Shown here piece by piece: positions 8,496 through 61,277 of a DNA stretch of 64,000 bases. The notes under the pieces were generated by a model. The model saw only the letters and a list, made by a program, of their open reading frames with translations, was not told the DNA's origin and searched no databases. Source of the stretch: an uncultured Gammaproteobacteria bacterium. Lineage in GTDB: Bacteria > Patescibacteriota > Microgenomatia > Levybacterales > UBA12049. A program made the translations under genes and the position numbers. The stretch covers positions 620,666-684,665 of the forward strand of contig CAZNAA010000001.1 in the NCBI GenBank assembly GCA_964571255.1, read 5' to 3'. The stretch's first letter is position 1. The number at the start of each line of letters is the position of its first letter.

Positions 8496-9210
8496 AACCT
8501 ATTACAAACAATCCCCTCGGATCAATAAACGGGTTCTGTTTCGTTTTTGTGGAATCTGTTTATGCTTACTTGGCGTTGTGGTAACAGGATATCTTTTTTT
8601 TCCCGTTATTTCCTGGAAGCTATACTTAGAACCAGCTTTTGCTTCTCAACAAATCACAAGTCCTGTTCCTCAAACAAACTTAGTAACGGCCAGTACCTGG
8701 CAAAGTCTTTTACAGTCAAATCAAATTGGAATAAACTTTAACGACCCAAAAAACTGGTTTCCAACTGCGTCTTTTGGCTCAAGTACCAAATCAAGTGTTG
8801 CCGAATACACTATTTCAATCCCAAAAATTAACATTTCCCAAGCGAGTGTCTCAACAATAGATGTGGATTTAGACAGGCATCTTATTAATTACCAAGGCAC
8901 CGCAACTCCTCCAAATAAAGGAAATGCTGTCATATTTGGCCACTCTACTCTCCCTCAGCTCTATAACCCCAAAGATTACAAGACTATTTTTGCTAACGCT
9001 CATACCTTAAAAAATGGAGACACGATTACCGTTCATTTAGACAAGATTGACTATACCTATAAGATTTTCTCTATCACCGTTGTTAGTCCTGAAGATACTT
9101 CCGCTTTAACTCAGAATTTTGATGATAGTTACCTAACGATTATTACCTGTACTCCTCCAGGAACGATTTGGAAGAGACTCATTATTAAATCAAAACTGGA
9201 AAAAATCTAA
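8488..9210 (+). CDS. Sortase family transpeptidase (membrane-anchored)
   Basis: N-terminal TM; conserved His (NAVIFGHSTL), TLxTC-like catalytic Cys motif (LTIITCTPPG), downstream Arg; overlaps upstream gene by 8 nt. Confidence 0.8.
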   Translation: MNKTYYKQSPRINKRVLFRFCGICLCLLGVVVTGYLFFPVISWKLYLEPAFASQQITSPVPQTNLVTASTWQSLLQSNQIGINFNDPKNWFPTASFGSSTKSSVAEYTISIPKINISQASVSTIDVDLDRHLINYQGTATPPNKGNAVIFGHSTLPQLYNPKDYKTIFANAHTLKNGDTITVHLDKIDYTYKIFSITVVSPEDTSALTQNFDDSYLTIITCTPPGTIWKRLIIKSKLEKI

Positions 9211-27657: not shown

Positions 27658-30033
27658 TTATTTAGAAATCGTATAGATAATTTCTTCATTCTCAACTGAA
27701 AATACTACCTTACTTCCCCGTTGCAGCATATCTTGCAGTTTCATTTTCGCTAAAGCATCCTCAATCGTATCCTGAATATAGCGTCGTAAAGGCCTGGCTC
27801 CAAACTGATTATTAGCTCCATGTGTAGCAATAAAGCCCAAGATGCTTTGATCAAAGCTAACCAAAAAATCTTGTTCTTCAAGGTATTTTGTTAACGATGC
27901 AAGCATGAGCTTGGTCACTTCTATTTGTTCCTGCGCAGAAAGAGGTTCAAACATGATGACATCATCAAATCGATTCAAAAGTTCAGGAGTATACAACCCT
28001 TGTGTTTGCAAAAATTCTAACAGATCTGTTTTCAACTGTTCTGCTTGAGTTTCTGCTTGAATTTTTTCTCGAATAAATTCTGCCCCTGCATTTGAAGTTG
28101 CAATAATGATTGCATTTTTAAAGGACACAACTCTTCCTAACGCATCTGTTAGTCTTCCATCGTCAAGTACCGGAAGGAGAAGATTTAAAACATCTCTGTC
28201 TGCTTTTTCAAATTCATCAAGAAGAATAAGACTAGAGGGATGATCCCGAACAGCTTCTGTTAATTCTCCTCTTCCATTATTTCCTCCAGGCATGCCAATC
28301 AGTCTCGCAACTCCTTCTGCTCCTCTAAATTCACTCATATCAAATCGAAGCATTTTCCCTTCTCCTCCAAAATAGACTGAGGCTAAGGCTTTAGCTGTTT
28401 CTGTTTTTCCAACTCCGGTTGGACCTAGAAACAGAAACGAAATAGGTTTTTTAGGAGGTTCTATATTTGACCGAATTCGCCTCACTGCCTCGGCAATTGC
28501 CACAGTTGCGTGCTGTTGACCAATAATTCTCTCTTGTAACTTGTCTTCAAGGGACAAAAGAGTTTTCTTTTCTTCTTGGCTTGGAGGAAGAGCCGTCGCA
28601 ACCCCTTTTTGTCCAACCGTTTGAGCAACATCTGATTCTTCTAAGAATTGTACTTGTCTTGTCTGGTGGACCCGTTGCCTGACATATCGGATACTGTCCT
28701 CAAGAAGGTTTATCGCACTTCCCGGAAGAACAACGTCTTGGGCATAAGAATCAGAGAGGCGAATTGATTCACGTAAGGCTTGATAACGGATTTTTACTCC
28801 AGTTCGTTTCTCTAAGTCTTCAACTTTTTCACATAAGATATGGAGTGCCGTTTGTTTATCAGGCTCTGAAATAGTAATAACCGTAAAAGCCTCACGAGCT
28901 GGACTATTTTCTAAGTATTGCTTATAGGCAGCTTGGGTCATAGTTGCAATAACAGGAAGTTTCCCATTTTTTAAATAAGGAAGGAGCGCTTCGGCAATAT
29001 TTACCTGGAAAGTAGGATTTCCCAGAATGTTTTCTAAGGCTGGAATATACAAAAGTACGTTATAAGAATGAGACACTTCTTGAATAATGGTTTGTAGCCT
29101 CGTTTCCAAATCAGCTCTATTAGCTGCTCCTGCCAAAAGTTGTCCTACCATTAACTCCAAAATTCGTCTGAAATTTAACTTTTCGGTAAGATTTCCAGAT
29201 TCTGTATCAAAAGCAAAGGCTTTTATGATACTCTCCTTCCCTACACCAATATCTCCAACCAGTAACACGTTATTATTCTCTGGTTTCTGAAGCGTTCCAA
29301 TTAACTCTTCATATTTTGCCTCTCTACTAAATAAATGAGGCCTTTGATAAGAGGAATAATAAAATTCTTGCGTATACTTTTGCGTTTCTGGGGTCCAGCC
29401 AGAAACTACTGCGTCTCCTATTCCTCTGCCACTGACCCGTACTCGAAACGGTTGTGGGTTTTCTTCTTCTGGATGAGCCATTCGAACCCAAGAGAGAAGA
29501 ACAAGGAGATCCTCTCGTTTTAAGTGGAGATTAAAAAGGGTTTGGCTTTGTTCCTCAATAAGCAACAAATAAGAAGCTAATAAATCCATTCGTAAAATGT
29601 ATTTACCCTTCACTTCTGTTGCTAATTCATAGGCAGTACGTAATAGTTGTTGCTGATCCACAAATATCTGAGGAATCATCTGTTTCTCAACTCCAAACCG
29701 GGTGAGAAAGAACTGCCCTTCAACCGTATTTAAAATATTGATTATTCCCCTTGTTCCTTTTTGATAGGCCAAAAGAGCATCAAGCGTACAACACTGGGTT
29801 AAATCAGAAGGATTTTCTGGAATCGTTTTATCAGGCATCATATGGCCTATTTTTCCAAAAACAAACAGCTCAGACGTAATTAAAAATTGAGTTAAAAAAA
29901 GCAAATAAGGAAAAAGGACTTTAGTCTCCCAAGAAAGATAGGCCAAATAGCTTAGTATTAAGACGCCTACTCCTCGAACAATAAGAAATTGCCAGGAAGT
30001 ATAGACTTGATAAATATGGGCAAAATATTTCAT
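27658..30033 (-). CDS. Hsp100/Clp-family ATPase paralog: N-terminal 2-TM anchor + Clp_N-like repeats, degenerate AAA D1 (Walker A GDIGVGKES, Walker B lost), intact D2, no M-domain
   Basis: TMs FLIVRGVGVLILSYLAYLSW / VLFPYLLFLTQFLITSELFVFG; D2 [55 protein letters not shown]; start overlaps upstream gene stop (ATGA). Confidence 0.85.
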   Translation of the reverse strand: MKYFAHIYQVYTSWQFLIVRGVGVLILSYLAYLSWETKVLFPYLLFLTQFLITSELFVFGKIGHMMPDKTIPENPSDLTQCCTLDALLAYQKGTRGIINILNTVEGQFFLTRFGVEKQMIPQIFVDQQQLLRTAYELATEVKGKYILRMDLLASYLLLIEEQSQTLFNLHLKREDLLVLLSWVRMAHPEEENPQPFRVRVSGRGIGDAVVSGWTPETQKYTQEFYYSSYQRPHLFSREAKYEELIGTLQKPENNNVLLVGDIGVGKESIIKAFAFDTESGNLTEKLNFRRILELMVGQLLAGAANRADLETRLQTIIQEVSHSYNVLLYIPALENILGNPTFQVNIAEALLPYLKNGKLPVIATMTQAAYKQYLENSPAREAFTVITISEPDKQTALHILCEKVEDLEKRTGVKIRYQALRESIRLSDSYAQDVVLPGSAINLLEDSIRYVRQRVHQTRQVQFLEESDVAQTVGQKGVATALPPSQEEKKTLLSLEDKLQERIIGQQHATVAIAEAVRRIRSNIEPPKKPISFLFLGPTGVGKTETAKALASVYFGGEGKMLRFDMSEFRGAEGVARLIGMPGGNNGRGELTEAVRDHPSSLILLDEFEKADRDVLNLLLPVLDDGRLTDALGRVVSFKNAIIIATSNAGAEFIREKIQAETQAEQLKTDLLEFLQTQGLYTPELLNRFDDVIMFEPLSAQEQIEVTKLMLASLTKYLEEQDFLVSFDQSILGFIATHGANNQFGARPLRRYIQDTIEDALAKMKLQDMLQRGSKVVFSVENEEIIYTISK

Positions 30034-30377
30034 ATGGCAGATACGATACTCATGATAACAAGAATGGTAACGACAAAAGGAAATCCAATAATAAAACTCA
30101 AAAGGAGTAGCTCAATAAAAAGAATCGGAAGCATCAGAATAAGCCACGTTAAAATAATACATAGTTTCACAAAAATTCCCATCACAATAGAGAATCTCAC
30201 AAGTCCTTCTCGATATTCATTTTTAATTGGTTGAAAAAAGGTTTGGAGAAGCATTTTTATGGAGAACATATGCATAAATGCCTTATTAAATGAGAGAAAA
30301 AAAAGTACTGCTTCTCGAGGTACTTCAATAAACCAAAAATGCAGAAAATAAAGAGGCAAAAGGGAGATATGTGACAT
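30030..30377 (-). CDS. Small polytopic membrane protein (115 aa, ~3 TM)
   Basis: hydrophobic ORF embedded in operon. Confidence 0.5.
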   Translation of the reverse strand: MSHISLLPLYFLHFWFIEVPREAVLFFLSFNKAFMHMFSIKMLLQTFFQPIKNEYREGLVRFSIVMGIFVKLCIILTWLILMLPILFIELLLLSFIIGFPFVVTILVIMSIVSAI

Positions 30378-30415: not shown

Positions 30416-33280
30416 CTATGCAGCTGCAGAAAGTGTCGCACCCGTTGCTGGAGGTTTCGGAGCATCAGGCTGTGACTGATTAAACTCTTGCGTCGGTGGT
30501 AAATTCCACCCAGAAGAAGAAGCAGCAGGAGGAGGAGGTACAGCTGATACAGGGGATGAACTCATAACTGGTGCACCTTCAGTTATTGGAGGCAGCGATG
30601 ATACAGGAGAAGGGGTAGAAGCGAGTAGAGACGGAGGTACCTCTACTGGAGGCATTTGAGATGTGTCAGCAAGATTCTTTTCACTCATTGGATCAATTTC
30701 ATCTAGTTTTGCATCAGGAGTTGGAGGGATTTCTTCTCCTTGAACAGGAGAGGCATCCGGTTTTGCACCACCTGCACTAGCAGAGCCTTTAGCAAAGGTG
30801 AATTCTGATTTTGTAGCGTCGTATCCAACTAAAATAACATCAGGTGAGGCAAATGTTTTCCCAATAAGCTTGACTGCGATGGGATTTTCAATAGAGGTTT
30901 GAATCAACCGTCGTAACGGACGAGCTCCATAGACTGGATCATATCCTTCCTTGGCAAGCTCCATGAGAGCAGATTGGGTAATTTGGAGATCAAGTCCTTG
31001 CTCTTGAAGCAGATGGGCTGTTTTGGCAATATTATTTTTGGCAATTGAGGCCATATCAGCTTGTGCTAGAGGCTTAAAGACAACTACTTCATCAAATCGA
31101 TTCAAAAGCTCTGGCTTGAAAAACTTATGCAACTCATCAGAAAGAAGTGAATTAAGGTCTGCAAAGTCTTTCTGATACTCCTCCTCAGTTGCATGAGGTT
31201 TGCTCATTTGCTGCTGGATCAAAGCACTTCCGATATTTGAAGTAGCAATAATAATGGTGTTTTTGAAAGAAATAGTATTTCCTTTGTTATCCGTAAGTCT
31301 CCCATCCTCAAGCAGTTGCAGTAAAATATTAAAGACATCAGGATGGGCTTTTTCAATCTCATCAAGAAGCACAATGGAGTACGGTTTTCGTCTTACTGCT
31401 TCTGTTAATTGACCACCCTCTTCATAGCCAACATAGCCTGGAGGAGCTCCGATAAGCTTGGCTACTTCATGTTTTTCCATATACTCACTCATATCAAGTC
31501 GAACAAGTGCGTCTTCTTTGCCAAAAAGAATTTCAGCTAGGGTCTTGGCCAACTCTGTTTTTCCAACTCCAGTAGGGCCGAGGAAAATAAATGAAGCAAT
31601 CGGACGAGTAGGACTTGCGAGTCCAATTCTTCCTCTTTGAACTGCCTCTGTTACTGATTGGACAGCTTCTTCTTGCCCAATAAGACGTTTGTGGATAAGC
31701 TCAGCCAAGTGAAGTAGTTTTTCTCCTTCATCTTCAGTCAATTTAGTAATAGGAATCCCTGTCCAACTACTTACAACCTTTTCAATATCTGATTTGACTA
31801 CTGCTGTATCTGTTTTTTTACCTGTTGAGTGTTGCAGCTTAACATCTGCTGCAGCCTCATCCATCAAATCCACTGCTTTATCTGGCAAAAATCTCTCTCC
31901 AATATATTTTTTTGACAAATGGACTGCGTCTTTTAAGGTTTCATCTGAAAAAGTCACACTATGAAACTTCTCATATTTTGGCTTAATGATTTGAAGCATC
32001 TCAACTGCAACTTCCTCAGTTGGTTCGTCAACTATAATTGGCTGAAAGCGTCTTTCAAAGGCTTTATCCTTTTCAAAATGCTTCCGATACTCACTGGTTG
32101 TTGTCGTTCCAATAAGCTGCAACTGTCCCCGAGCTAGATAGGGTTTAACAATATTTGAAGCATCCAGTGCTCCTCCCTCATCTCCTGCTCCAATAAGAGT
32201 ATGAATTTCATCAATGAAAAGAATGATCTCTCCACTCGCCTCAATGGTTTCTTTAATAACATCTCGAAGTCTCTCCTCAAACTCTCCCCGATGAGATGCT
32301 CCGGCCACAAGAGAGGCAAGATCCATTTGAATAATTCTTTTACCTGAGAGATCTTTTGGAGCAGTTCCTCCCACAATTGATTGAGCAAGGCCTTCAACAA
32401 TAGCCGTCTTTCCAACTCCTGCCTCTCCAATGATAATAGGATTATTTTTCGATCTTCTGAGTAAAATATGCACCATTCGCTCAATTTCTTTATCTCGTCC
32501 TGCAATCGGATCTAATTTTCCGTCTTTGGCTTGTTGAGTGAGATCAATTCCATATTTCTCCAAAACTGATTTTTTTCCCGTGTGATAGGTGGGATTTTTA
32601 GCAAGAGACTGAACAAGCTTATCTTTTTGAATTCCCTTCTCACTGAGTGCTTTATTCATCGATTCCAAAGAGGCAAGAGCTACGAGGAGATCTTCAGGTG
32701 AGATAAAGGCAACTCCTCGTCCTTTCACGTCCTTATATGCAGCATCAAAAACTGATTTGGTTTGATCACTCAGTTTTGGCTGCCCTGAAAAATTCCCTGG
32801 AATTTGTTTCGCTTGGATTTCTTTAGAAAGGGCTCCAACATCTACTGATTCTTTTTGCAAAAGAGCAAAAATTTCTTGATCAAAAAGAATTCCATATAAA
32901 AGCAAATCTGGCTCAATCTTTTCTTTTTTCAATCTTGTTGCTTCTTCTTGAGCATGGGTCAAGGCTTGGGAAGATCTCGCATCTAGATGAGAAAGAACTG
33001 ACATGTCTTGCTTGGTTGCAGGATCTAAGGAAGAAGACGTTGAGGCAACAGGTGTTTGTCCTATAGGAGCTTCTGGATCAAGAGGAGTTGGATCATTAGG
33101 AACAGGAGATACAGGCGTACTCGTTGCACCTGAAGAAGCTAATGGAGCTTGAGGTACAGGAGTAGCTACTGGCTGAGCAGATGGTGTTTGTCCGTCTTCT
33201 GGTTTATGAAATAAATTACCAAACATAGTTCCATTATGGACATAAGTTTTGTCAAAAAGCAACTTATAACCTGTCTTCAC
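30416..33280 (-). CDS. ClpA/ClpC-type Hsp100 ATPase (two Clp_N repeats, canonical D1 and D2, no long M-domain) with Pro/Ser/Thr-rich N- and C-terminal extensions
   Basis: D1 [32 protein letters not shown]; D2 [56 protein letters not shown]; 954 aa; overlaps upstream gene by 17 nt. Confidence 0.9.
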
Positions 33281-36200
33281 TTACAGGAGCTTTTTCCTCT
33301 GTTTTACTTGGTGGAATCTCTTCTTTTATCTCCATGTGTTGCACCTTCATCTCAGGCTTTTTCTCGTCACGTCTGGCAGGAAGTTTTGATTCTTCCTCTT
33401 GCTCTTTTTTATCGACATCCTCAAGTACATCTTTGGCTGCTTCTTGTTTGGCCTTCAAATAGCCAACAATTTCTGTTTGTGAGAAGCCTCCAATAAGAAG
33501 GAACGGCAGAATACCTGATACTTTTTTCATTCCTTCCTGTCTTTTTTCATTGACTGGAGAGGAAAGAAGGTTAATGGCCTCAGTAATCTCTTCAATATCT
33601 TGACTGATAAATTGAGCCTTTGGTACTTTTTGTCCTTGTCTAATTGGTTCATCGAGATTTTCATAGTTTTCCTTCCAGATTTTTTTGACTGCTTCATAAT
33701 CCTCAAGTGAGACGTTTTGAACTCTATTCACAACGGGGAAGGAGACATCTTTTTTAATCAGTGAGGTATTGGGTTTTTGCTGGCGTTGTTTGACCAACAA
33801 ACTATAAATAAATCCAGCTAACTGATCACCCTTGTCTTTGGCCTTTACTAGTTCCTCTTTGACTTTCTCAACGGTAACTACAGGCTGTACAGGTGTAACC
33901 GTTTGGATAAGTTGAGTAGCAAAAGGTGTTTGTTGTTGAGCCTCAAGACGGATTTGTTGGGTGAGATTAAAGACTGTTTCTTTACTCGCTTCTCCTCTTC
34001 CCTCAATCATATCCAAAAGTTGCGTGGCAAGTTTGTTGCCTTTTACTTGCTCTTCTTTAATAAAGGTAAGAAGTACTGTGTAGGACTCTTTCTCTTTTTG
34101 ATCAGTAATAAGCTCTGGTTTAAGAAGTTTCTCAACAATCTCTGTAACTTTTTGTGACTGAACTGGAGCAGGAGTAGATTGGACAGGAGTAGTTTGTTTT
34201 TGAACAAGTGTAGAAAGAACCGATTGGAGAGTTGTACTTCCTCGTACTTCTTTTATCGTTTGAGTTACTTGCTTAATCAGATCTTGCGTAATATTTTGAG
34301 GTGATTGGAGAATAGGGAGAAGTTGAGTAGCTAACTGATCACCTTTTTGGGCATCTTTGACAATCGTTTCTCGAATAGTCATAGCTGTTTCTTTTTCTTT
34401 TTGAGGAAGCAAATCAGGTTGAGCTAGGTGTTGGATAAAGGTAGCAACATGATTTTCTGTAATTTCCGTTGTCCCTTGTTGCAAATACGTATTGGTAATG
34501 TAGTTTACAACTGATTGATCTGTTTTATTAACTTGGCTCATTTGCTGAGTGAGAGAATTCATAACAGATGGAGAAAGAGATTGCGTTTGGGTAATAAGTG
34601 AGAGCAGTTGACGAGCTAGTGGAGTACCCAACACTGCTTCTTTCGTAATCGTTTCTTTCAAAACTTCTATATTTTGCTTGTCAGAAATGTTGGTAATCAC
34701 CTCAGGATGTGCGAGTTGGTTAATAATAGTAGTTAAGGCTTGCTCTGTTGAAACAGCTTGGGTACTACTCGACTGATCAGTTTTGGAGGAGATATATTGA
34801 TTAAGAGTTGTGGCAAAAGAGTTTCCCGCAACAGATTGCTGGCTTACGGTCTCTTTGACTTTCTCATAGACTGTTTTTTCGGTTATTTGAGTAACTCGCT
34901 CAGGTGTTGCAATGTTATTTAAGATATTAATTAACACTGGTCTGTCGTCTGAAACAGTAACAGGAGTTGAAACAATAGCACTGGATGCTTGCAATACGAC
35001 ATTGGCAAATTGATTCCCTCTTTGACTTTCATTTCTTAACGTCTCTCGAATCCTTTCAAATTGTTGTCTTTCAACAGGAGTTCTAGCCAGTTGAGGATTT
35101 GAGATTTGTTGGAGATTTTGAACAGACACAGGAGTACTCGTTTGCGTTGTTGTTGTCGTTTTTATTTGATTAGTATCGAACATGGCAATATCTCGCATAG
35201 TAGGAATTGCTACTTGGATTTGTTTGAGAACTTCATTTAACCTACTCACCTCTGTACTTCGAATAACAGGAGTTGATTGCTGCTGTTGCACTGAAACCGT
35301 TTGTCTTAATGGCCTTGCTTGAGGCAGTGACTTGGCCTGAGAGGCTGGAGTAACCGATTGAACGATAGGTTCTGAGAAAGGAAGTTGCAGCTTTCGTCCA
35401 AACGGCAAACTGAGAGCCTTTCCAGTTGGGAAGGAAGGAGGAGTAGGTGGAGGTGGTGGAGATAGTGGTTGACGATTAAGCATAGTATTTGAGAGAGCAA
35501 GAAACTGCTTCATTCCTGGAGCATCATTTAAAGCAAGACTAAATAGATAATCAAGAAAAATACGAAGCAAGATAAAGGGCAAAATCATAACAGCCCACAG
35601 CATCATGAGACAAATAGTGTAGAGAGCAAACGTTTCAGGAAGATTCACGCTACTGGCAAGACCAATAGCTTGTCTTGGTCCTCCTAGTAAAATATTCACT
35701 GCTGTTTGATAGACAGGAGTTGCCGTTTTCGTAACAATAGTTCCTGTTGGTTGATAAGAAAAAAGCGGAATGGTTGATTGCCACAAAGAGACAAGTCCTG
35801 CAAGGAGTACGGCAAAAAGAGGGCCATATAATACCCACCGGAAAAACTCCCCTATCCAAATTTTAGCGGTATTTCGAATCGGCCAGTAGAAAAGAAGCAG
35901 AGGGAAAATGGGAGAGATAATAATAAAAAACCACAATACTATTTTTCGAATAATAAGCATGGCAGCCATGGCATAATAGGTAACTGCAGTAAGTCTGGTT
36001 AAAAGAAGCGTCATGAACGCTGACTCATCAGTAAAGGAGTCTACTCGCTTGTACCCGATAAAGTCTTCATATTTAAATGCAATATTTAGCAAATTTTCTT
36101 GACTAATTGTTTGACGCACTGCAGCAGTGGCGGGATCTGGATTTCGCAGGAAAAACCCTTGGGTAATATCAGTTAGTTGATAAATGATCTGGACCATTCC

Positions 36201-36584
36201 AAATGAAAAGGTGACTAGAAGTAAAATTCCCACAAAGCGGGGAATAAATTTTTGCAAGCTAATATTACTTCCCCTAGTTATGAGCATCAAAAACGCTGTT
36301 GAGAGAATAAAGAGAGCAAAGAATGCATAGACAAGATTTCTGATAATAATCCAGAAAGGAATGAGAGGGTTTCCTTCGTTGCCTAACTGCACCCATTTGT
36401 AGTTTTCCAACGTCCAATCCAAAAACGCTCCAGCTCGTGCAGCTGTTTTTCCAACAAAGGTTACTTCATTATCAACAACCCACGTTCCAACTAAGTCAGC
36501 TGCAAAAATATGAGAGGGAACAAAGAACAAAAGAATACTAAAAATGGTAAGAAAAAGAAGAAAGTTGGGCAGCAAGCGTTTCAT
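33264..36584 (-). CDS. Large membrane protein (1106 aa): signal peptide + ~7-8 TM N-terminal module, poly-Pro linker, ~600-aa Gln/Thr/Ser-rich region of ~6 degenerate tandem repeats, acidic/Lys tail
   Basis: repeat signatures ETIVKDAQKGDQLATQLLPIL / ETITKEAVLGTPLARQLLSLI / EEQVKGNKLATQLLDMI / KAKDKGDQLAGFIYSLL / RNESQRGNQFANVVLQ / QQSVAGNSFATTLNQYI, each preceded by (H/Q)PE(V/L)IT-like segment. Confidence 0.8.
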   Translation of the reverse strand: MKRLLPNFLLFLTIFSILLFFVPSHIFAADLVGTWVVDNEVTFVGKTAARAGAFLDWTLENYKWVQLGNEGNPLIPFWIIIRNLVYAFFALFILSTAFLMLITRGSNISLQKFIPRFVGILLLVTFSFGMVQIIYQLTDITQGFFLRNPDPATAAVRQTISQENLLNIAFKYEDFIGYKRVDSFTDESAFMTLLLTRLTAVTYYAMAAMLIIRKIVLWFFIIISPIFPLLLFYWPIRNTAKIWIGEFFRWVLYGPLFAVLLAGLVSLWQSTIPLFSYQPTGTIVTKTATPVYQTAVNILLGGPRQAIGLASSVNLPETFALYTICLMMLWAVMILPFILLRIFLDYLFSLALNDAPGMKQFLALSNTMLNRQPLSPPPPPTPPSFPTGKALSLPFGRKLQLPFSEPIVQSVTPASQAKSLPQARPLRQTVSVQQQQSTPVIRSTEVSRLNEVLKQIQVAIPTMRDIAMFDTNQIKTTTTTQTSTPVSVQNLQQISNPQLARTPVERQQFERIRETLRNESQRGNQFANVVLQASSAIVSTPVTVSDDRPVLINILNNIATPERVTQITEKTVYEKVKETVSQQSVAGNSFATTLNQYISSKTDQSSSTQAVSTEQALTTIINQLAHPEVITNISDKQNIEVLKETITKEAVLGTPLARQLLSLITQTQSLSPSVMNSLTQQMSQVNKTDQSVVNYITNTYLQQGTTEITENHVATFIQHLAQPDLLPQKEKETAMTIRETIVKDAQKGDQLATQLLPILQSPQNITQDLIKQVTQTIKEVRGSTTLQSVLSTLVQKQTTPVQSTPAPVQSQKVTEIVEKLLKPELITDQKEKESYTVLLTFIKEEQVKGNKLATQLLDMIEGRGEASKETVFNLTQQIRLEAQQQTPFATQLIQTVTPVQPVVTVEKVKEELVKAKDKGDQLAGFIYSLLVKQRQQKPNTSLIKKDVSFPVVNRVQNVSLEDYEAVKKIWKENYENLDEPIRQGQKVPKAQFISQDIEEITEAINLLSSPVNEKRQEGMKKVSGILPFLLIGGFSQTEIVGYLKAKQEAAKDVLEDVDKKEQEEESKLPARRDEKKPEMKVQHMEIKEEIPPSKTEEKAPVSEDRL

Positions 36585-36702
36585 ACTATAAATTCATAAA
36601 AAGAGTAGACAGAATTACCTATCTCTCCTCTTGTATAGTAGCATATTTACTGACTCATATTGGAATAGATATTTAACAAATTGTGGATGAAAAAGAGATT
36701 CA

Positions 36703-36733
36703 GGTATCCCGCTGCAGTTAGCAGCGGAATACC
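36703..36733 (-). terminator. 13-bp stem hairpin GGTATcCCGCTGC-AGTTA-GCAGCGGaATACC followed on minus strand by UCUCUUUUUC
   Basis: seen directly; sits between GC-islet ORF and the Clp operon start. Confidence 0.5.
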
Positions 36734-36904
36734 ATACTCTTGCGATGATAGTGTGAAGGAGTAGTCTACGGTAGCCTGCATCTCCCACCCAATGGAATCA
36801 TGCCCCCAGCGTTTACCCACCCTGAGGCGCGTAGTCGCTTTGCAACCGCCTGCTCGTCTTCTTCTTTGGTACGGGCTTGACATGATCTCCATCCTTTCTT
36901 GTTG

Positions 36905-37276
36905 TTAACCATTTATCTGCTCGTCGATCATCGAGAGCAGCAGTTCGCGGACATTGTCCTCCGCTAACAACCGTCGGAGAGCAAGCCTCGTGATAGCACC
37001 CTTGAAGGCCGAGAGAAAGATCTCGATGATAGCGTGTTCGTGTTGGGAAGCAAAATTGTGTTTTTTTTGCTTCGCCAAATCCTGCCACCTCGGATAGTGG
37101 GGGCGTTCGTGGGGGAAGAACTTAACAGTCTTTTCCCCCCAGAAACGCCACCTGGGCCTGCGATGATCTACCCTATTGAACTTATCCCACGTTTCTATTG
37201 GAAGTAAGTCCACAAGTGCTACAACAAACGCTGTAGTATTGTTTTTGAGGTCGATTTGAGAATCTAGGATTTCCAT
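36905..37276 (-). CDS. Hypothetical protein in second GC-rich islet (~123 aa)
   Basis: GGAGG upstream of ATG 37276 (MEILDSQIDLK...); GC ~50%; overlapping alternative-frame ORFs judged spurious. Confidence 0.45.
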   Translation of the reverse strand: MEILDSQIDLKNNTTAFVVALVDLLPIETWDKFNRVDHRRPRWRFWGEKTVKFFPHERPHYPRWQDLAKQKKHNFASQHEHAIIEIFLSAFKGAITRLALRRLLAEDNVRELLLSMIDEQING

Positions 37277-37524
37277 TTTTCCCTCCTGCCCTCCTACCAC
37301 TGGTACATCCAGTAGTATTGAAGCAAGTAAAAAGAAAAGAAATTAATTCCTTCCCTCTTTCCTTGCTTCAAAAGATAACAGAGATTACGTTTCACAACTA
37401 TTAATGTGCAAGAGAATTAAAATATTCTAGGTTCTACTAGATTTCTGCATTCAGAAATAAGTTGAATCTAAAAACTGAGAAGATTATAAGATAAAAATAG
37501 AGAGATTGCAAACTATGGGGTTGA

Positions 37525-38406
37525 TTAGAACCAATTTTTCTTTTTGGAATCGGTACTATCAAATTCTTCCAGTAATTCTTTTTGTCTTTTCGTTACACTT
37601 TTTGGAATAGCCACTTTAATCTTGACGTAGTGATCTCCATTCCCGCCTCCTCTGATTCTTGGCATTCCTTTCCCAGAAAGTCTAATAAGCATTCCAGGTT
37701 GTGTTCCTGAGGGAATTTTTATCGTTACTTTTCCTTGAACTGTTTCAACAGGTAATTGAGTTCCGAGTACAGCTTGAGGAAAAGAAATCTCTTCTTCTGT
37801 AATAATGTCTGCTCCTTCTCTTTGATATCTGTTGTGAGGCTGTACATCAATAAGAACGTCATAGTTTTCAAATCGAATACGAGATCCTCGGTCTACCCCT
37901 GCTGGGATTTTTATCTTTTGTTTTTTCCCATCAATCGTTACTTCTTTTTCTACTCCTTTTATAGCATCATCAAAAGTAATGGTTAAGGAGTAAACAGGAC
38001 GACGTTGGGCTCTGGAGAAAGGTCCGCCGGCTCCTCCAAAAAATTGTTCGAAAATTTCAAAGGGATCTGAAAATCCGCCAGAATCAAATCCTTGGTTTTG
38101 AGAAGAAGAATAAGTATACGTAAATGGCCCTCCTCCTTGGAAAGGTCCACCAGGTCCTGGTCCCCCTGCTCCTGGACCTCCTTGATCAAAAGCAGCTGAA
38201 CCATATTGATCGTATAATTGTTTTTTCTGAGGATCTGAGAGAACTTCGTATGCCTTAGTTATTTCTTTAAATTTAGTTTCTGCTTCCTTAGTTTTATTTC
38301 TATCTGGGTGATACTGCAGTGCAAGCTTTCGATATGACTTTTTTATTTCATCAGGTGGAGATGATTTGGTAATTCCTAGTAATTGATAATAATCAGTTTG
38401 TGCCAT
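37525..38406 (-). CDS. dnaJ: DnaJ-family co-chaperone (J domain + G/F region + C-terminal domains; no Zn-finger CxxCxGxG repeats)
   Basis: YYQLLGITKSSPPDEIKKSYRKLALQYHPDRN. Confidence 0.9.
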   Translation of the reverse strand: MAQTDYYQLLGITKSSPPDEIKKSYRKLALQYHPDRNKTKEAETKFKEITKAYEVLSDPQKKQLYDQYGSAAFDQGGPGAGGPGPGGPFQGGGPFTYTYSSSQNQGFDSGGFSDPFEIFEQFFGGAGGPFSRAQRRPVYSLTITFDDAIKGVEKEVTIDGKKQKIKIPAGVDRGSRIRFENYDVLIDVQPHNRYQREGADIITEEEISFPQAVLGTQLPVETVQGKVTIKIPSGTQPGMLIRLSGKGMPRIRGGGNGDHYVKIKVAIPKSVTKRQKELLEEFDSTDSKKKNWF

Positions 38407-38425
38407 AGGTCTTTAGATACGAAAG

Positions 38426-38443
38426 AAGCGCGTTTCCGCGCTT
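38426..38443. other. Intergenic hairpin AAGCGCG-TTTC-CGCGCTT between dnaK and dnaJ
   Basis: 7-bp GC stem; minus-strand RNA loop GAAA; T-run on plus side, weak U-run on minus side. Confidence 0.4.
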
Positions 38444-38467
38444 TTGTATAGCTTTTTGAGCTAATAG

Positions 38468-40381
38468 TTATTCTACCACTTCTCCTTCTTTTGCTTTTCC
38501 TTTATCTTCTCCCGGCTCTTTTTTCTCATCACCATCAGTTTTCCCATCTTCCTCAACTGCTTCAATTTCTGGTTCCTCAGTTGGATTAGGAGTAGATTGC
38601 ATATGTTGTCCAATTTTTTGCATAGATTCAGCTAACTCTTTGGATTTACTCTCAATCTCTTCTTTGCTTCCTGAATCAAGTACGCTTCTGAGACTACTGA
38701 TTTTTTCCTCAACTTCAGTTTTTATTTCATCAGTTATTTTCCCTTCAGCATCTTTAAGGGATTTTTCTGCAGTAAAGATGAGTGAGTCAGCCATGTTTTT
38801 AGCCTCAACTTGAGATTTTTTCTCTTCGTCTTCTTTTGCATGCAACTCTGCTTCTTTAGTCATTTTTTCAACCTCTTCTTTGGATAACCCAGTTGAGCCT
38901 TGAATCTTGATACTTTGCTCTTTGCCACTAGCTTTGTCTTTAGCCGTAACGTGCAAGATTCCATTGGCATCAATATCAAAAGTCACCTCAACTTGTGGCA
39001 TACCTCGTGGAGCTGGTGGAATTCCGTCTAGGATAAATCTTCCCAAGGATTTATTATCAGCTGCCATAGATCTCTCCCCCTGTAATACATTAATTTCAAC
39101 TTGTGTTTGGTTATCAGCAGCAGTTGAGAAAACTTGGGATTTACTCGTTGGAATAGTCGTATTTCGATTAATAAGAGGAGTTGAAACAGCACCAAGCGTC
39201 TCAATACCCAGAGTTAATGGAGTAACGTCTAAAAGAAGTACATCTTTAACATCTCCTGCCAATACTCCTCCTTGAATGGCTGCACCCATGGCAACGACTT
39301 CATCTGGATTTACTGACTTATTGGATTCTTTCCCAAAGTATTTAGAAACTGTTTCGATAATCTTTGGCATTCGAGTCATTCCTCCAACCAAAACGACTTC
39401 ATCAACCTCCGATGCTTTCATCCCAGCGTCTTTAAGAGCTAATTCTACTGGTTTAAGCGTTTTTTGAACTAAATCATCAACAAGTTGCTCAAGCTTGGAA
39501 CGAGTCAAAGTCAAAGTCAAATGTAGTGGGCCATTCTCTCCTTGGGTGATGAATGGTTGATTAATGGATGCCTCTTGTGAAGAAGATAGTTCAATTTTGG
39601 CTTTTTCAGCAGATTCTTTGAGACGTTGGAGTGCTTGAGGATCTTTTCTCAAATCAACGTTGTTTTCCTTTTTAAATTCATCGGCAATGTGATCAATAAT
39701 GACTTGATCAAAATCATCTCCTCCCAAATGAGTATCACCATTCGTCGACTTTACCTCAGTTACGCCTTCTCCTAACTCAAGAATAGAAATATCAAACGTC
39801 CCTCCGCCCAAGTCATATACGGCAATCGTATGAGAGTTTTTCTTATCTAAGCCATAGGCTAAAGCTGCTGCAGTTGGTTCGTTAATAATTCGTTTTACAT
39901 CAAGTCCAGCAATCTCTCCAGCTTGTTTGGTTGCTTGGCGTTGACTGTCATCAAAATAGGCGGGAACGGTGATAACTGCTTCTGTTACTTTCTCACCCAG
40001 ATAGGACTCTGCATCGGCTTTGATTTTTTGCAAAATCATGGCTGAGATTTCTTGTGGAGTAAAGGTTTTCCCATCAACCTCAACTACTGCCATTCCATCT
40101 CGTCCTTCTTTAACAGTGTATGGAAGCCATTTCAAATCGCGTTGTACGGATTCGTCTTTAAACTTTTTTCCCATGAGACGTTTGACTGAGAAAATGGTTT
40201 GTTTTGGCTTTAACACCATTTGGCGCTTAGCAACGTCTCCAACAACGTGGGAGATTGGGTCAACCACTGAAGGGATAACGTTTCTGCCTTCAGCTGAGTG
40301 GATAACATTTGCCATTCCACCTTGCATTACAGCAACGCATGAGTTTGTTGTTCCTAAATCAATTCCAATTATTTTACCCAT
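38468..40381 (-). CDS. dnaK: Chaperone DnaK (Hsp70)
   Basis: [31 protein letters not shown], acidic C-terminal tail. Confidence 0.97.
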
Positions 40382-40443
40382 ATATTTTTTGTGAGTCTTT
40401 TTAAGATCTCAGAGAAAAAAATTTATTTTTCTTCTCTCAAATC

Positions 40444-40956
40444 TTACTTTCCTCCAACTGCTACTTCAGCAGGACGTAGTAATTTTCCGTAGAGCAAGTA
40501 TCCAGGACGTCTTTCTTCAATCACTATATTAGCATCTCCGTCAATAATTTCAACTGCCTCCATGAGGGATGGATCAAAAACTTTTCCAACTGTTTCTATC
40601 TTCTCAACCCCTTCACCTTTTAGTGCGTCTTTGTAGACAGTAATGACTAATTCAAGAGTCTTATCAGTATTATGCTTTGAAGTCATCTCCAGCATATCTA
40701 GAGTGGGAAGTAATCGTTGCAGAAGAGACAGATTGGCACTTTTAATCCACTCTGACTTTTCTTCTCGTACTCGCTTTTCAAGGTTCTGATAATCAGCAAG
40801 AATTCTCTTGTACTGATTTGTCATTTCTTCTAGTTGTATTTCGCAACTGTCATGTATGTCTTCTTCAAGAACAGGCATTTCCTCCACGTCTTGTTGTTCC
40901 TCTTTCACTTGATCTTGCTTCTTCATAATTTTACCACTGTTTTGCCACGTCTTCAA
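40444..40956 (-). CDS. grpE: Nucleotide exchange factor GrpE
   Basis: coiled-coil N-half and C-terminal beta domain; operon position. Confidence 0.85.
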   Translation of the reverse strand: MKTWQNSGKIMKKQDQVKEEQQDVEEMPVLEEDIHDSCEIQLEEMTNQYKRILADYQNLEKRVREEKSEWIKSANLSLLQRLLPTLDMLEMTSKHNTDKTLELVITVYKDALKGEGVEKIETVGKVFDPSLMEAVEIIDGDANIVIEERRPGYLLYGKLLRPAEVAVGGK

Positions 40957-41665
40957 TCAAATCTCCAAAATATCTTACTGCAGGAACAATAGTTGTATAG
41001 TTAAGGCGTTGTGGTCCAATAACTCCAATTTCTCCATGTTCCTGTCCTGGTACGTTGTACTCAGTAAAAACTAACCCATATGGTCCTTTTAACGCTCCTC
41101 CTAATTCATCTCCCATAACAATGTGAATTTCTTCATCAACGTCACTGTTTGCAAATAGTACTTTGAAATATTCATACTCATCCAAGGCTTGTAAAAGTGT
41201 TTTAGTGATATCGATATCAAAAAACTCTGGCATATCTAAAATATGTGCATAGCCTGAGCAATAGATTTGTCCACTTCCTGTTGTAGCAATGGCAACGGCT
41301 CCCGTTTTTTGAGCTAATGACTTAGTAACTTCCCTCAGAAACCTATCGACTTGAGACCGATAATCCCATACATTTTCTTTTAAGGCTACTTCCTCAACCG
41401 TTGATAACTGCTTTACTTTCATTAACTCTTTGACATACAGTCTCATGCCTTCAGCGGTTGGGATTCTTCCGGCTGAGGTGTGAGGTTTTTCTAAATAGCC
41501 AAGAGTTGTTAGATGAACCATTTCGTTTCGAATGGTTGCAGGAGAAGCACTTAAATTATATTTCTTCTCAATGGTTTCTGATCCAACTGGTAAAGCAGTG
41601 TCAATGTATTCCTCAATAATACTTTTCAGAATATCGATTTGACGCTGAGTAAGGTTATGAATCAT
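40931..41665 (-). CDS. hrcA: Heat-inducible transcription repressor HrcA (short, 244 aa)
   Basis: N-terminal winged HTH (TQRQIDILKSIIEEYIDTALPVGSETI), operon hrcA-grpE-dnaK-dnaJ. Confidence 0.85.
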   Translation of the reverse strand: MIHNLTQRQIDILKSIIEEYIDTALPVGSETIEKKYNLSASPATIRNEMVHLTTLGYLEKPHTSAGRIPTAEGMRLYVKELMKVKQLSTVEEVALKENVWDYRSQVDRFLREVTKSLAQKTGAVAIATTGSGQIYCSGYAHILDMPEFFDIDITKTLLQALDEYEYFKVLFANSDVDEEIHIVMGDELGGALKGPYGLVFTEYNVPGQEHGEIGVIGPQRLNYTTIVPAVRYFGDLIEDVAKQW

Positions 41666-58347: not shown

Positions 58348-60138
58348 TTAACTTTCAGTTTCCATTGATACAGAGGAAACAAGATGATCAGGAAGGCGCA
58401 AAAGGCCCTCGTCTAATCTTTTTTGATCTAGAAAGTGGGCAATAAATCCAACACTTCGTGACAGGACAAATAAACTATTGAAAAATTCTTGAGTTACCAA
58501 TTCTTGCAGCTCTTCAGGACTTATGCCTTCTTTTTCTGAAAGAACATCAAGTAAAACTGCCGCAATAGCTCCGTCAATGTTTAAGATTAAATTTCCTTTC
58601 TTGCTACTCGTTACCTTCTCAACCTCAAGAGCAAAACTGGTATAAACTTTTTTCTCACAACTTTCAATAAAGGTAAGAAGCTTTTTTACTCTTGGATCAG
58701 GAAGATCTACTCGGTATTTTTTATGCCCTATTCCTAAGATATATTCATTTCGTGAAGCAAACGACTCAACAAACTCAGAAGCTTGAGTTTTTTCACTTAC
58801 TCCTTTTAGCCAATTACCAGCTGCTTCATTGACTGCTCCTCCAAAACGAGAACCAATGGTAAGTAAACCTGATGCTAAGGCTGAAACTAAATCCCTCCCA
58901 GCTCGGGCTGTAACAATGGTATTCACTGCTCCTGAGACGTGTGGTCCGTGATCAATAAGAAGTTTTAAGATAAACTCCACTACCTTTTCTGTTTCTTTGG
59001 ATTTGATTTGTTTTCCCAAAAAAGCTGATGCGACAAGGTAAGCAAACGAGTTGTTCTCAACGAGTGAGAGGAGTGAGGAATTGAGAAAATAGGCCTCTCC
59101 ATCTTTCTCCTGTGAAAGAGAGGTGGTGATTAAGGATTGGGAGCGATTTTTAATCTCATCCATATGCGTAGTATACGACTTCTCAGTGTGCTTGGATAGA
59201 GATGGAATTTGACCAACTAGAGAAACAAACTCTTCAAAAGAAGTAGCAACACTCATTCCCACTTCTTTTAGTCGCGCTCTTTTGGCCTTCGCACTCTCAT
59301 CCACAGTTCCTGCCATAGCCTTAGCATGACCAAATTGGGGAGGAGTTGGGAACAGATCGGAAACAATTCCAGCAATGTAGCAAACTGTTGGTTTAGTAAG
59401 TTTCTTCTGCTCATAAAGAGTAGCAATTTCATACTCATCTACTCCCCCTAACTCTCCGTAATATACAATGTGAGTTGTTTGGGAATCATTTTCTGCAAGT
59501 AAAAAAGCGTCTTTTGGACTAGTAAGGGGAAATCTATCTCCTCCCATATGCAACCCAAAAGAAATTCTTTTTCCACTCGTTGTCACTATTCGCATCAACT
59601 CATTAGTCATCCCGCCTGATGCTGAGATAACCGCAACACTTCCTCCATCTAGTAAATCTCCATCTAAAAATTGCACTGCATCAGTTCCTCCAATAGCACC
59701 ACTTTTCAAAAACCCAGGAAGAAGAAGACCAATACTTGCTGGTCCTAGAATTAATTTGTCTTTTGTCATTGTTAACAGTTCAAGTGCTTGTCTTTCCGGA
59801 ACGTCTTCAGCAAAGATGGTTAATACTTTTAACTTAGGGAGGGAAAGGGCATCTTTGGAGGAGTGTAATACTCTTCTTCCAGAACGAACGTTAATAGCAA
59901 CGGTTATTTTTTCTTGAAATGACTGAGGAAGTGAAGCAATGGATTCAAAAACAGGAAGTAATATTTCTTTTTTTCCAAAATAAAACTTTTCATACTTTCT
60001 TCCTGTTGAGAGAATGGCACAAAGACTAGGTTTTTCTTTTCCCAATAAAAAATCATAGTCCAAAATGGATTGAATAATCCCTTTGTGACTTCCAATCATA
60101 AGAATATTTTGATTACCTGATCTGAGTGCTTGTATCAT
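58348..60138 (-). CDS. aclA: ATP-citrate lyase large subunit AclA-like (CoA-binding/succinyl-CoA-synthetase-alpha-like + citrate-synthase-like domain)
   Basis: ILGIGHKKYRVDLPDPRV matches ACLY GIGHRVKSINNPDMRV; His-loop region; 596 aa. Confidence 0.8.
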   Translation of the reverse strand: MIQALRSGNQNILMIGSHKGIIQSILDYDFLLGKEKPSLCAILSTGRKYEKFYFGKKEILLPVFESIASLPQSFQEKITVAINVRSGRRVLHSSKDALSLPKLKVLTIFAEDVPERQALELLTMTKDKLILGPASIGLLLPGFLKSGAIGGTDAVQFLDGDLLDGGSVAVISASGGMTNELMRIVTTSGKRISFGLHMGGDRFPLTSPKDAFLLAENDSQTTHIVYYGELGGVDEYEIATLYEQKKLTKPTVCYIAGIVSDLFPTPPQFGHAKAMAGTVDESAKAKRARLKEVGMSVATSFEEFVSLVGQIPSLSKHTEKSYTTHMDEIKNRSQSLITTSLSQEKDGEAYFLNSSLLSLVENNSFAYLVASAFLGKQIKSKETEKVVEFILKLLIDHGPHVSGAVNTIVTARAGRDLVSALASGLLTIGSRFGGAVNEAAGNWLKGVSEKTQASEFVESFASRNEYILGIGHKKYRVDLPDPRVKKLLTFIESCEKKVYTSFALEVEKVTSSKKGNLILNIDGAIAAVLLDVLSEKEGISPEELQELVTQEFFNSLFVLSRSVGFIAHFLDQKRLDEGLLRLPDHLVSSVSMETES

Positions 60139-61277
60139 ACGTTTATTGCTTGTTTGACTATTTCAGAAATGGTCATATCAGGACCAGATACTGCTCCGTA
60201 GAGATTTTTATCTTTTAAGAATTGCTCCATTAGTGCTAAGCCTTTTTTCTGATTCGGCCCACCACGCCTCACATAGACTTTTACTTTTTCTTTGACTAAT
60301 TTTTCACTTTCTTCGTCTAAGGCTTGGATTACTCCAGTAAAGGTTTTGGCAATATCCGTAAAGTTGGCTACTCCTCCTCCAATAATAATACGTTTGTTCT
60401 GTGCCGTACTCTTAAAAAGAAGACTGAGTAACTCTTTGGTATACAAATAGGTTTCCTCAGTCGTTGGGTTCCCACTATACTCTCCATAATTTGCAATCTC
60501 TTCTCCTTTACCACTTTGTGCAATTTCATCAGCAATAACTAAACTTGCTCCTCCTCCAGACATGAGTAAAAAGATACTTCCATTTTTATTAAGTACCGTT
60601 AAGGAAAAAGAGGCTTGGGACTTTTCAGAAAGATCCTTAATGTGTTTTTCTTCCTCAGTTATTTTTTGAAAAGGAAGCGCAAAATCCTCTTCATTCCAAA
60701 AAGAGGTTGCAAAGAAGCTAGCTGCTGTATCTACTTCACACGCAATATCAAGTGGAAGAAACTGAGATTGCTTATACACAAACGGATTTATTTCCAAGAA
60801 AGAAAGATACGCATCATTAAAAAGTGTCACAAGGGTAGGAAGAAGTTGTGGATCTATTCCTTCAAGTGAAGGGATCTCTTTTGTAATAAGATGTTTTATA
60901 ACTTCACTTTCCTCTTCTATATGCACTCCCCCTTTTTTTGAGTACAAAAGGTGAATACCATCTCGCTCTCGTGTAAGAGAGAGGTATTGCTCCTCATCTG
61001 ATTCATGAGGAATATATGGCTCAAGTAAAAACGTGCTATAACCTTTCTCCATCCAATCAGAAAGAAGTGATTCAATATCTCCTTTGGCAATATTTACCTT
61101 GACGAGTCCTGACAGAAAACGTTTTTTTACTCCCTGATCTACTTTCAAAACATATTGTCCCTCAGGAATACTGTGCACTTGACTCATATCAGTAAGAGAA
61201 ACTCCAGAATAAGAGAGAGAAAGAGCGTGGAAAACAAGTGTCTTACTGGAAAATTCCGATAACCGTTGTCGTGCCAT
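60135..61277 (-). CDS. aclB: ATP-citrate lyase small subunit AclB-like (ATP-grasp, succinyl-CoA-synthetase-beta-like)
   Basis: FLLMSGGGASLVIADEI...ANYGEYSGNPTTEETY...IIGGGVANFTDIAKTF...VYVRRGGPN aligns closely to the ACLY N-terminal region; 4-nt overlap with aclA. Confidence 0.85.
   Translation of the reverse strand: MARQRLSEFSSKTLVFHALSLSYSGVSLTDMSQVHSIPEGQYVLKVDQGVKKRFLSGLVKVNIAKGDIESLLSDWMEKGYSTFLLEPYIPHESDEEQYLSLTRERDGIHLLYSKKGGVHIEEESEVIKHLITKEIPSLEGIDPQLLPTLVTLFNDAYLSFLEINPFVYKQSQFLPLDIACEVDTAASFFATSFWNEEDFALPFQKITEEEKHIKDLSEKSQASFSLTVLNKNGSIFLLMSGGGASLVIADEIAQSGKGEEIANYGEYSGNPTTEETYLYTKELLSLLFKSTAQNKRIIIGGGVANFTDIAKTFTGVIQALDEESEKLVKEKVKVYVRRGGPNQKKGLALMEQFLKDKNLYGAVSGPDMTISEIVKQAINV

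Follow-up and report, generated by a model that had tools for sequence, protein, structure and literature searches.

In R388's type IV secretion system (T4SS), VirB6 is a pentamer whose membrane part consists of helices α1 and α2 only, and α1 has been proposed as the site where VirB2 is recruited (PMC9259494). A pairing of VirB2-like and VirB6-like genes thus has a direct rationale. Extended VirB6 proteins are defined by five or more hydrophobic helices together with large hydrophilic domains, whose role is unknown (PMC12857230). In a survey of Patescibacteria, VirB4 (often encoded near dnaA), TrsD, VirB3 and VirB2-like pilins are reported as widespread; its passages on Microgenomatia place virB4 near dnaA and describe VirB6 homologues as 'scarce', 'suggesting extreme sequence divergence' (Quinonero-Coronel et al. 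2025, PMC12102498). The entries of its Table S3 for two assemblies of Levybacteria, a group of very small bacteria not yet in culture, give VirB4, TrsD, two PF18895 VirB2, VirB1 and a type IV coupling protein (T4CP), with VirB6 not listed. Here we describe a gene at positions 33264-36584 of a 64,000-nt stretch of DNA, hereafter the window (contig CAZNAA010000001.1 of GCA_964571255.1, forward-strand positions 620,666-684,665; Levybacterales, UBA12049). We propose, at a probability of roughly 0.62, that its product is a strongly diverged, extended VirB6 (TrbL) subunit of a Patescibacterial T4SS-like apparatus. Its family is a good, fold-supported candidate for the VirB6 missing from those two entries of the census, and the candidate gene lies elsewhere on the chromosome, with one more VirB2-like pilin. 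What is new here is an extended VirB6 whose C-terminal module is novel and whose gene occupies an unusual but conserved site in a chaperone cluster, in a clade without a recognised VirB6.

The protein is about 12% identical in sequence to TrwI/VirB6 of R388 (PDB 7O3V, 8RT9), A. tumefaciens VirB6 and the PF04610 family. It differs from TrwI/VirB6 in its length (1106 aa rather than about 300-350 aa, with a 700-aa C-terminal extension), in its cleavable-looking signal peptide and extra long helix (316-353), in its gene not standing with virB4, virB3, virB5 or virB8, and in its monoderm host. The extended VirB6 proteins of Rickettsiales (Anaplasma/Ehrlichia VirB6-3/-4, Rickettsia RvhB6) have the same plan, a TrbL/VirB6 domain followed by a long, hydrophilic, repeat-built C-terminus, and also vary in length between strains or species. 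However, the extensions have no detectable similarity in sequence or fold; the rickettsial repeats are recent tandem repeats at the DNA level, whereas those described here are ancient and 18-41% identical; the rickettsial genes belong to a sodB-virB3-virB4-virB6 operon; and, unlike theirs, the present module is closed by a helical domain that is conserved and looks globular. F-plasmid TraG and the MPF_FA VirB6 proteins (Tn916 Orf15 type, 700-900 aa) likewise join a VirB6-like polytopic N-domain to a large hydrophilic domain, and the MPF_FA examples also come from monoderms. Unlike the window gene, they are encoded in conjugation modules, where a relaxase and a coupling protein are their partners; the C-domain of TraG acts in mating-pair stabilisation and entry exclusion, and Pfam gave no homology between the extensions. 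In DotA (Legionella Dot/Icm, PDB 9NGY) the additions are inserted domains, and the protein belongs to a diderm type IVB system, pairs with IcmX and has another gene context. The Patescibacterial T4SS of Saccharimonadia (Southlakia epibionticum) comes from the same phylum, is a monoderm T4SS with PF18895 VirB2-like pilins and includes a VirB6 homologue in its essential apparatus; its virB6 lies near virB4 and is found by standard profiles, whereas the family described here sits in a chaperone cluster, far from virB4.

The VirB6-like N-terminal domain

An AlphaFold model of aa 1-400, built with a 46-sequence alignment, has a predicted local distance difference test score (pLDDT) of 84.4 and a predicted template modelling score (pTM) of 0.77. 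When it was compared with the PDB using Foldseek, the first nine matches were all TrwI chains, with probabilities of 0.54-1.00 (0.96-1.00 for the top five) and weak E-values of 0.015-1.1. The model and these matches together showed that the N-terminal ~370 aa are predicted to adopt the VirB6 fold in three dimensions. The TrbL/VirB6 profile PF04610 aligns with aa 92-279 over its positions 4-191 of 215, scoring 22.2 bits on the full-length protein and 23.8 bits on aa 1-400, for a gathering cutoff of 25.9. Of 46 relatives, 19 are matched by the same profile at E<=0.01, with 5.1e-7 as the lowest E-value, and several homologues carry precomputed matches to PF04610 or PF19590 (TrbL_3). When aa 1-400 were used as the query of a word-indexed search, the homologues recovered were all close relatives, most of them short, and canonical VirB6 was not reached. 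On the strength of the PF04610 and Foldseek matches, we take the N-domain to be a genuine, very diverged VirB6 homologue. An earlier note, made from the DNA sequence alone, had remarked on a resemblance to VirB6/TrbL proteins, and the near-cutoff profile score, the matches of the relatives and the TrwI fold matches all support it. The protein also has the composition of an extended VirB6: aa 29-370 are VirB6-like, and aa 371-1106 are hydrophilic, helical and repetitive.

The frame at 33264-36584 is open throughout its 1106 codons and lies on the minus strand, the strand being unstated in the earlier note. Its parts are listed below, with the evidence for each in brackets; dN/dS is the ratio of non-synonymous (dN) to synonymous (dS) substitution rates.

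33264-36584, minus strand: whole open reading frame (ORF), extended VirB6-like protein, 1106 aa (ORF list, translation)
36501-36584, minus strand: signal-peptide-like N-terminus, aa 1-28, with MKR, a hydrophobic core and IFA/A (sequence, Kyte-Doolittle, AlphaFold)
35475-36500, minus strand: VirB6/TrbL-like polytopic domain, aa 29-370 (helices 39-60, 74-103, 110-145, 183-231, 234-270, 316-353, 356-369)
35427-35459, minus strand: proline linker PPPPPTPPSFP, aa 376-386, after the last hydrophobic helix (sequence)
33798-35126, minus strand: array of five full and two half helical repeats, aa 487-929 (dot-plot, leave-one-out hidden Markov model (HMM), AlphaFold)
33381-33809, minus strand: conserved C-terminal domain of ~140 aa, aa 926-1068 (HMM score 199 bits)
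33267-33380, minus strand: charged E/K tail, aa 1069-1106 (50% D/E/K/R; poorly conserved, dN/dS 0.62)

The N-terminus, MKRLLPNFLLFLTIFSILLFFVPSHIFA followed by AD, resembles a Sec signal peptide. Cleavage, as read from the sequence, is predicted after A28, a residue almost invariant across the family alignment; the Kyte-Doolittle scan marks a segment 1-33 here, and AlphaFold gives a helix 4-20 followed by a low-confidence stretch 25-31. Downstream of the signal peptide the Kyte-Doolittle scan detects five hydrophobic segments, AlphaFold builds long helices at 74-103, 110-145, 183-231, 234-270 and 316-353, and the family alignment contains six hydrophobic stretches. As helix 183-231 is made of two equally hydrophobic halves, parted by an RK that is invariant family-wide, the number of hydrophobic helices is 5-6, possibly 7. 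This count agrees with the five or so, or more, of a polytopic VirB6, and the 7-8 transmembrane helices of the earlier note were an overestimate. The signal peptide and proline linker that it had pointed out were both found, and the family keeps a P..PPP consensus at the linker. A conserved tryptophan in the central loop between transmembrane domains TMD3 and TMD4 is a feature of the VirB6 family. The window protein carries an invariant R213-K214-x-x-L217-W218 between the two halves of helix 183-231, in which W218 is a possible counterpart.

The C-terminal module and its family

Self-BLASTP of the protein gave no off-diagonal match; window scoring and HMMs were therefore needed to detect the repeats. 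In a self-comparison of aa 401-1010 (BLOSUM62, window 25), the best windows scored 56, 54, 51 and 50, while the maxima of 50 shuffles had a mean of 37.1 (standard deviation 3.5) and a highest value of 46. In a leave-one-out analysis, where an HMM built from four copies was scored on the fifth, the omitted full copy obtained 18-39 bits, compared with at most 4.4 bits in 200 composition-matched shuffles. The full repeat cores, of about 45-50 aa, lie at aa 487-535, 550-600, 614-666, 709-761 and 809-860, with start-to-start spacings of 63, 64, 95 and 100 aa, and two half copies at aa 868-896 and 904-929 score 5-8 bits each by HMM. Their consensus is ..L.KIANPE.IT...ERE.Y..LREKLV.ESQKGN.LAT.IL.., and an AlphaFold model of aa 700-1075 (pLDDT 79.8) gives three helices per full repeat. 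The cores are pairwise 18-41% identical in protein and 48-60% in DNA, and Tandem Repeats Finder (TRF) detected no DNA tandem array at the repeats, which are thus old. The recurring motif described in the earlier note was correct, as were its view of ancient repeats diverged in DNA and its Q/T/S-rich region (aa 400-1000 contain 13% Q, 12% T, 10% V, 9% L and 8% S). Its count of about six tandem repeats of 70-100 aa holds as regards repetition but not as regards the unit, since there are five full and two half cores of ~50 aa.

The repeats are closed by the ~140-aa C-terminal domain, with the consensus N.VQ.VSLEDYEAVKK.W.ENY ... ILPFLL.GGFSQTEIV.YLKAK; in aa ~960-1066 its pLDDT exceeds 90. For aa 371-1106 there was no match to a Pfam or NCBIfam family, and scans with PADLOC and PHROGs gave nothing for the protein. 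Foldseek, searched against the PDB with the model of aa 700-1075, returned generic helical-repeat noise (all E>1, probability <0.16). In the Pfam, NCBIfam, PDB-profile and Foldseek searches, no homology was found between this extension and those of known extended VirB6 proteins (Rickettsiales, TraG).

More than 574 homologues of 800-1900 aa are detectable, nearly all from metagenome-assembled genomes of Patescibacteria; the named ones are mostly Levybacteria, and all are annotated as "hypothetical". Proteins of the family begin with the VirB6-like N-domain, go on through a Pro-rich linker to a conserved ..PTMRDIA.. motif and then have one to four modules, in each of which a run of the about 45-50-aa repeats is closed by the C-terminal domain. 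With family HMMs, 1-14 repeat copies and 1-4 C-terminal domain copies were counted per protein. The window protein has a single module, and many relatives of ~700-800 aa have one repeat and one domain; overall, members span about 440 to 3266 aa, the longest being 2790-3266 aa. A HMMER search over 1.84 billion representative proteins confined the module to 370 clusters at 50% identity. Full-length module-bearing members carry the VirB6-like N-domain: among 124 previously unseen representatives it is present in 87, and the other 37 are mostly short fragments starting within repeats.

A conserved site between heat-shock chaperone genes

We fetched 88 related loci from public assemblies, or 86 once two duplicate records were dropped. 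Most are from Levybacteria, and 80 of the fetched loci are GTDB species representatives. They were annotated by window-derived queries: called genes were annotated with Pfam (+/-10 kb) in eight fetched loci, and the other 80 were searched with window-derived reference proteins only. In the window, the VirB6-like gene occupies the place X in a same-strand array hrcA-grpE-dnaK-dnaJ-[X]-clpB-TM115-clpB2, whose other members are as follows.

40931-41665, minus strand: hrcA (Pfam)
40444-40956, minus strand: grpE (Pfam)
38468-40381, minus strand: dnaK (Pfam)
37525-38406, minus strand: dnaJ, the upstream neighbour, last of the hrcA-grpE-dnaK-dnaJ block at 37525-41665 (Pfam)
30416-33226, minus strand: ClpB-type Hsp100, the downstream neighbour, 936 aa from MFGNLF (Pfam, NCBIfam)
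30030-30377, minus strand: 115-aa membrane protein, TM115 (window array)
27658-30033, minus strand: second, diverged Hsp100, clpB2, 791 aa (window array)

In 79 of 83 loci the gene immediately upstream is pilin-like and encodes ~100 aa; the median gap is ~3 nt, and the two genes frequently overlap. Against PF18895 T4SS_pilin (cutoff 26.6), its family consensus reaches 33.7 bits and single members reach 18.6-27.7 bits. Downstream, 61 of 73 loci have ClpB no more than 300 nt away, and 8 more have it within 2 kb; homologues do stand beside Clp genes in other genomes, a check that the earlier note had suggested. The gene dnaK is upstream in 68 of 74 loci; dnaJ is found upstream in 38 loci but downstream in 23. 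Pilin, VirB6-like protein and ClpB thus form a trio that stays together while its surroundings rearrange. In the window, ClpB (Pfam Clp_N, AAA, AAA_lid_9, AAA_2 and ClpB_D2-small; best NCBIfam match ClpB) starts at the conserved MFGNLF, with its ATG at 33226, 37 nt past the VirB6-like stop codon; an apparent 17-nt overlap with the downstream gene was an artefact of an over-long GTG ORF. The earlier note had made the VirB6-like gene the first of an Hsp100 operon. This was not established, as the gene stands inside the hrcA-to-clpB2 array and is preceded by the pilin gene in relatives. Its statement that there is "no T4SS context" is right within the 64-kb window and wrong for the family, in which a PF18895 pilin gene adjoins in those 79 loci.

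Placement between dnaK/dnaJ and clpB is most simply explained by co-expression with the heat-shock chaperone cluster, and is no proof of physical partnership. No match to the consensus of the HrcA operator, the controlling inverted repeat of chaperone expression (CIRCE), was found in the window with up to 3 mismatches, so that heat-shock regulation is assumed from context. Promoter scans did no better than shuffles, and terminator scans were uninformative for the operon limits.

The site shows several variations. In 8 loci (including L012 12267-13658, L044 12320-13678 and L055 3230-4612), a conserved, signal-anchored protein of ~460 aa with a C-terminal ...FTCSQ is encoded between the VirB6-like gene and ClpB. 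In L004 (10001-16798) and L075 (10001-16756), a VirB6-like copy stands at a second locus, where its neighbours are alaS and a Baseplate_J-like/sortase pair. Neither pilin nor ClpB adjoins these copies, and two secreted S8 peptidases are encoded after them. The Baseplate_J-like/sortase pair has a syntenic counterpart in the window (6123-9210), in which a sortase comes after a 790-aa protein whose Baseplate_J-like match is weak. A divergent copy in L064 (9226-14764) has two pilin genes upstream and groES-groEL downstream, and in L006 an S8 peptidase follows ClpB. Apart from this site, two adjacent genes at window positions 58348-61277 match ATP-citrate lyase/synthase domains, the first Citrate_bind and ATP-grasp N, the second CoA-ligase and Citrate_synt. 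Genes of this type encode a central-carbon enzyme that is unexpected in a reduced Patescibacteria genome.

Function and competing explanations

Several observations weigh against the assignment of the window protein to a T4SS-like apparatus. Its PF04610 score falls short of the Pfam gathering score, and a profile of the family alignment, searched against all PDB sequences, found no VirB6, the best match being a Q-rich stretch of TBP (E=0.35). Pfam scanning of the larger ORFs revealed no VirB4, VirB3, VirB8 or VirD4 in the window, and none was present within +/-10 kb in the eight Pfam-annotated loci, VirB4 not having been searched for in the other 80; the company of VirB4 and mating-pair-formation genes, usual for VirB6, was thus not found. 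A T4SS role leaves the nearly universal placement in a chaperone cluster (dnaK/clpB, or groESL in L064) unaccounted for. Two points speak against an extension outside the membrane, the side favoured below: the family has a net positive charge in the ~47 residues that follow the last hydrophobic helix (K+R 5.5 vs D+E 2.1), and the classical topology of A. tumefaciens VirB6 has a cytoplasmic C-terminus. Finally, neither the window, where a pilin HMM gave a best score of 10 bits, nor the closest relative, L007, in which only a 102-nt gap remains, has the adjacent pilin gene.

The missing pilin gene is a lineage-specific loss and not a property of the family, and any pilin partner must consequently be encoded elsewhere in this genome. 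Where relatives carry the VirB2-like pilin gene, the window has an insertion, the only other sequence there being a conserved leader of ~100 nt.

36680-37515, minus strand: lineage-specific, GC-rich insertion of ~835 nt, between the dnaJ stop codon and the conserved leader (alignment with L007, GC profile)

The insertion is absent from L007, and its 3' two-thirds have a GC content of 50-59%, compared with ~32% for the genome. It contains a 131-aa ORF (36905-37300) and, at its end (~36700-36735), a GC-rich hairpin of 13 bp with a U-rich tract after it; its RNA fold has a z-score of -2.5. No match to it was found in Rfam, Pfam, NCBIfam, PADLOC or PHROGs, and Rfam gave no RNA family in the whole window. 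The insertion may represent a structured RNA or else a mobile element. Loss of the pilin gene from both genomes and the arrival of this foreign-looking sequence upstream might suggest that the VirB6-like gene is a decaying remnant, non-functional in this genome since its partner was deleted. This is very improbable, because the ORF is intact in both genomes and the 100-nt leader is ~98% conserved between them. Moreover, comparison with the 93%-identical orthologue of L007 gave a dS of 0.63 but a dN of only 0.04 for the whole gene (dN/dS 0.063); by region, dN/dS is 0.043 for the membrane domain and 0.074 for the linker and repeats, and the C-terminal domain is the most constrained part, at 0.024. 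Such strong purifying selection indicates, as an evolutionary test can, that the gene is still functional in the window genome.

Two other explanations keep the gene functional but give the VirB6 fold another use. The fold may have been co-opted into a chaperone-coupled membrane machine, with cytoplasmic C-terminal modules docking ClpB and/or DnaK; ClpB would dock through its N-terminal M(L/F)GNLF peptide, carried on a flexible linker, and the Hsp100 unfoldase would feed or extract polypeptides at a VirB6/VirB2 conduit independently of VirB4. The closeness of ClpB even where dnaJ has moved, and the groES-groEL that takes its place beside the divergent L064 copy, are consistent with this. So is the extreme N-terminus of ClpB, atypical for this protein: the motif M(L/F)G(N/S)LF is found in 59 of 66 related loci, most others having near variants (MFGKLF, MFGDLF), and is separated from Clp_N by a variable, low-complexity, P/S/T/Q-rich linker of 40-106 aa (window 32950-33226). 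It looks like a tethered short linear motif, judging from sequence. The nearby Hsp100 paralogue points the same way. It has two N-terminal hydrophobic segments (aa ~15-58), a dead first nucleotide-binding domain (NBD1) without Walker A and an intact NBD2, and its gene overlaps by 4 nt the upstream gene for the 115-aa membrane protein, in a pair (window 27658-30377) that most related loci keep; the paralogue may be an AAA+ unfoldase anchored in the membrane. The net-positive segment after the last helix would also fit a cytoplasmic C-terminus in models with five or seven transmembrane helices. General ClpB is used by the type VI secretion system of Francisella. However, adjacency within one bacterial class can stem from inherited order and shared regulation, and hrcA-grpE-dnaK-dnaJ near clpB is ordinary, so that the gene pair may simply have inserted there; no ClpB stands beside the second-locus copies of L004 and L075, where secreted S8 peptidases come next, and the topology based on R388 places the extension outside the membrane. 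Scans of Pfam, NCBIfam, PADLOC and PHROGs revealed no J domain, ClpS/MecA-like adaptor or Clp_N partner motif, and for a role as Hsp100/DnaK co-chaperone or adaptor the support found was gene adjacency. We therefore regard such a machine as unlikely. Its fullest form is improbable: pilin, extended VirB6, ClpB, the membrane-anchored paralogue and its 115-aa partner would constitute an Hsp100-driven module for translocation or pilus assembly, acting instead of or besides VirB4, in which the repeated C-terminal modules may be cytoplasmic docking sites for chaperones or clients. The opposite orientation underlies the second explanation, a surface fibril or adhesin, in which the VirB6-like domain would be a mere anchor and the linker and helical modules would cross the wall to a host or substrate, with a module number varying as in surface proteins and with neighbouring proteases possibly releasing the extension. 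The family's spread of lengths and its one to four modules would suit a fibril, as would the S8 peptidases after the gene in L004 and L075 and after ClpB in L006, the trypsin data on Anaplasma cited below, and an S+T+N+Q content of 36-37% in the linker and repeats, compared with 18-22% in 14 cytoplasmic proteins of the window. Yet this composition does not discriminate between the two sides, because the linker of cytoplasmic ClpB is similarly S/T/P/Q-rich, and we rejected it as a guide. The low dN/dS of the repeats (0.07) and the near-invariant C-terminal domain are unlike an adhesin whose variation is driven by antigenicity or host, no sortase motif or known adhesin fold was found, and the tight pairing with a VirB2-like pilin suggests that the VirB6 domain is more than an anchor. 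The chance that the protein is such a fibril seems small.

We thus retain the extended VirB6 as the preferred explanation and propose a function by analogy with TrwI/VirB6 of R388. Once its signal peptide is removed, the protein would be anchored in the cytoplasmic membrane by helices 74-103 and 110-145, and five copies would form a dome-like platform that draws VirB2-like pilins from the membrane so that they stack up as a pilus or conduit. The platform would work with the VirB4/TrsD/VirB2 cluster encoded elsewhere in Levybacteria, near dnaA, and its C-terminal arms would surround it as five long, flexible helical tethers. We infer this pentameric function, the co-expression with chaperones and the cooperation with a distant VirB4 cluster, the last since no VirB4 was found near the gene. 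Regarding the side of the membrane, positive-inside counts conflict among models with 5, 6 and 7 helices. We lean very slightly towards an extension outside the cytoplasmic membrane, by analogy with two systems: in the R388 arrangement everything after α2 is periplasmic, and trypsin digestion of intact cells suggests that the repeat-containing C-terminal extensions of Anaplasma VirB6-3/-4 are surface exposed (PMC7648143). If they are outside, the arms might reach across the wall and lend stability to contact or to pilus assembly.

The family adds a well-conserved new type of module to the extended VirB6 proteins, the role of whose extensions is an acknowledged open question. Parts of a T4SS, here a VirB2-like pilin and a VirB6, can sit away from virB4, within a heat-shock chaperone cluster, and a possible link between an Hsp100 chaperone and a secretion-type membrane platform is a testable lead. 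Patescibacteria depend on other cells, and in Saccharimonadia, the sole lineage tested experimentally, the T4SS is essential.

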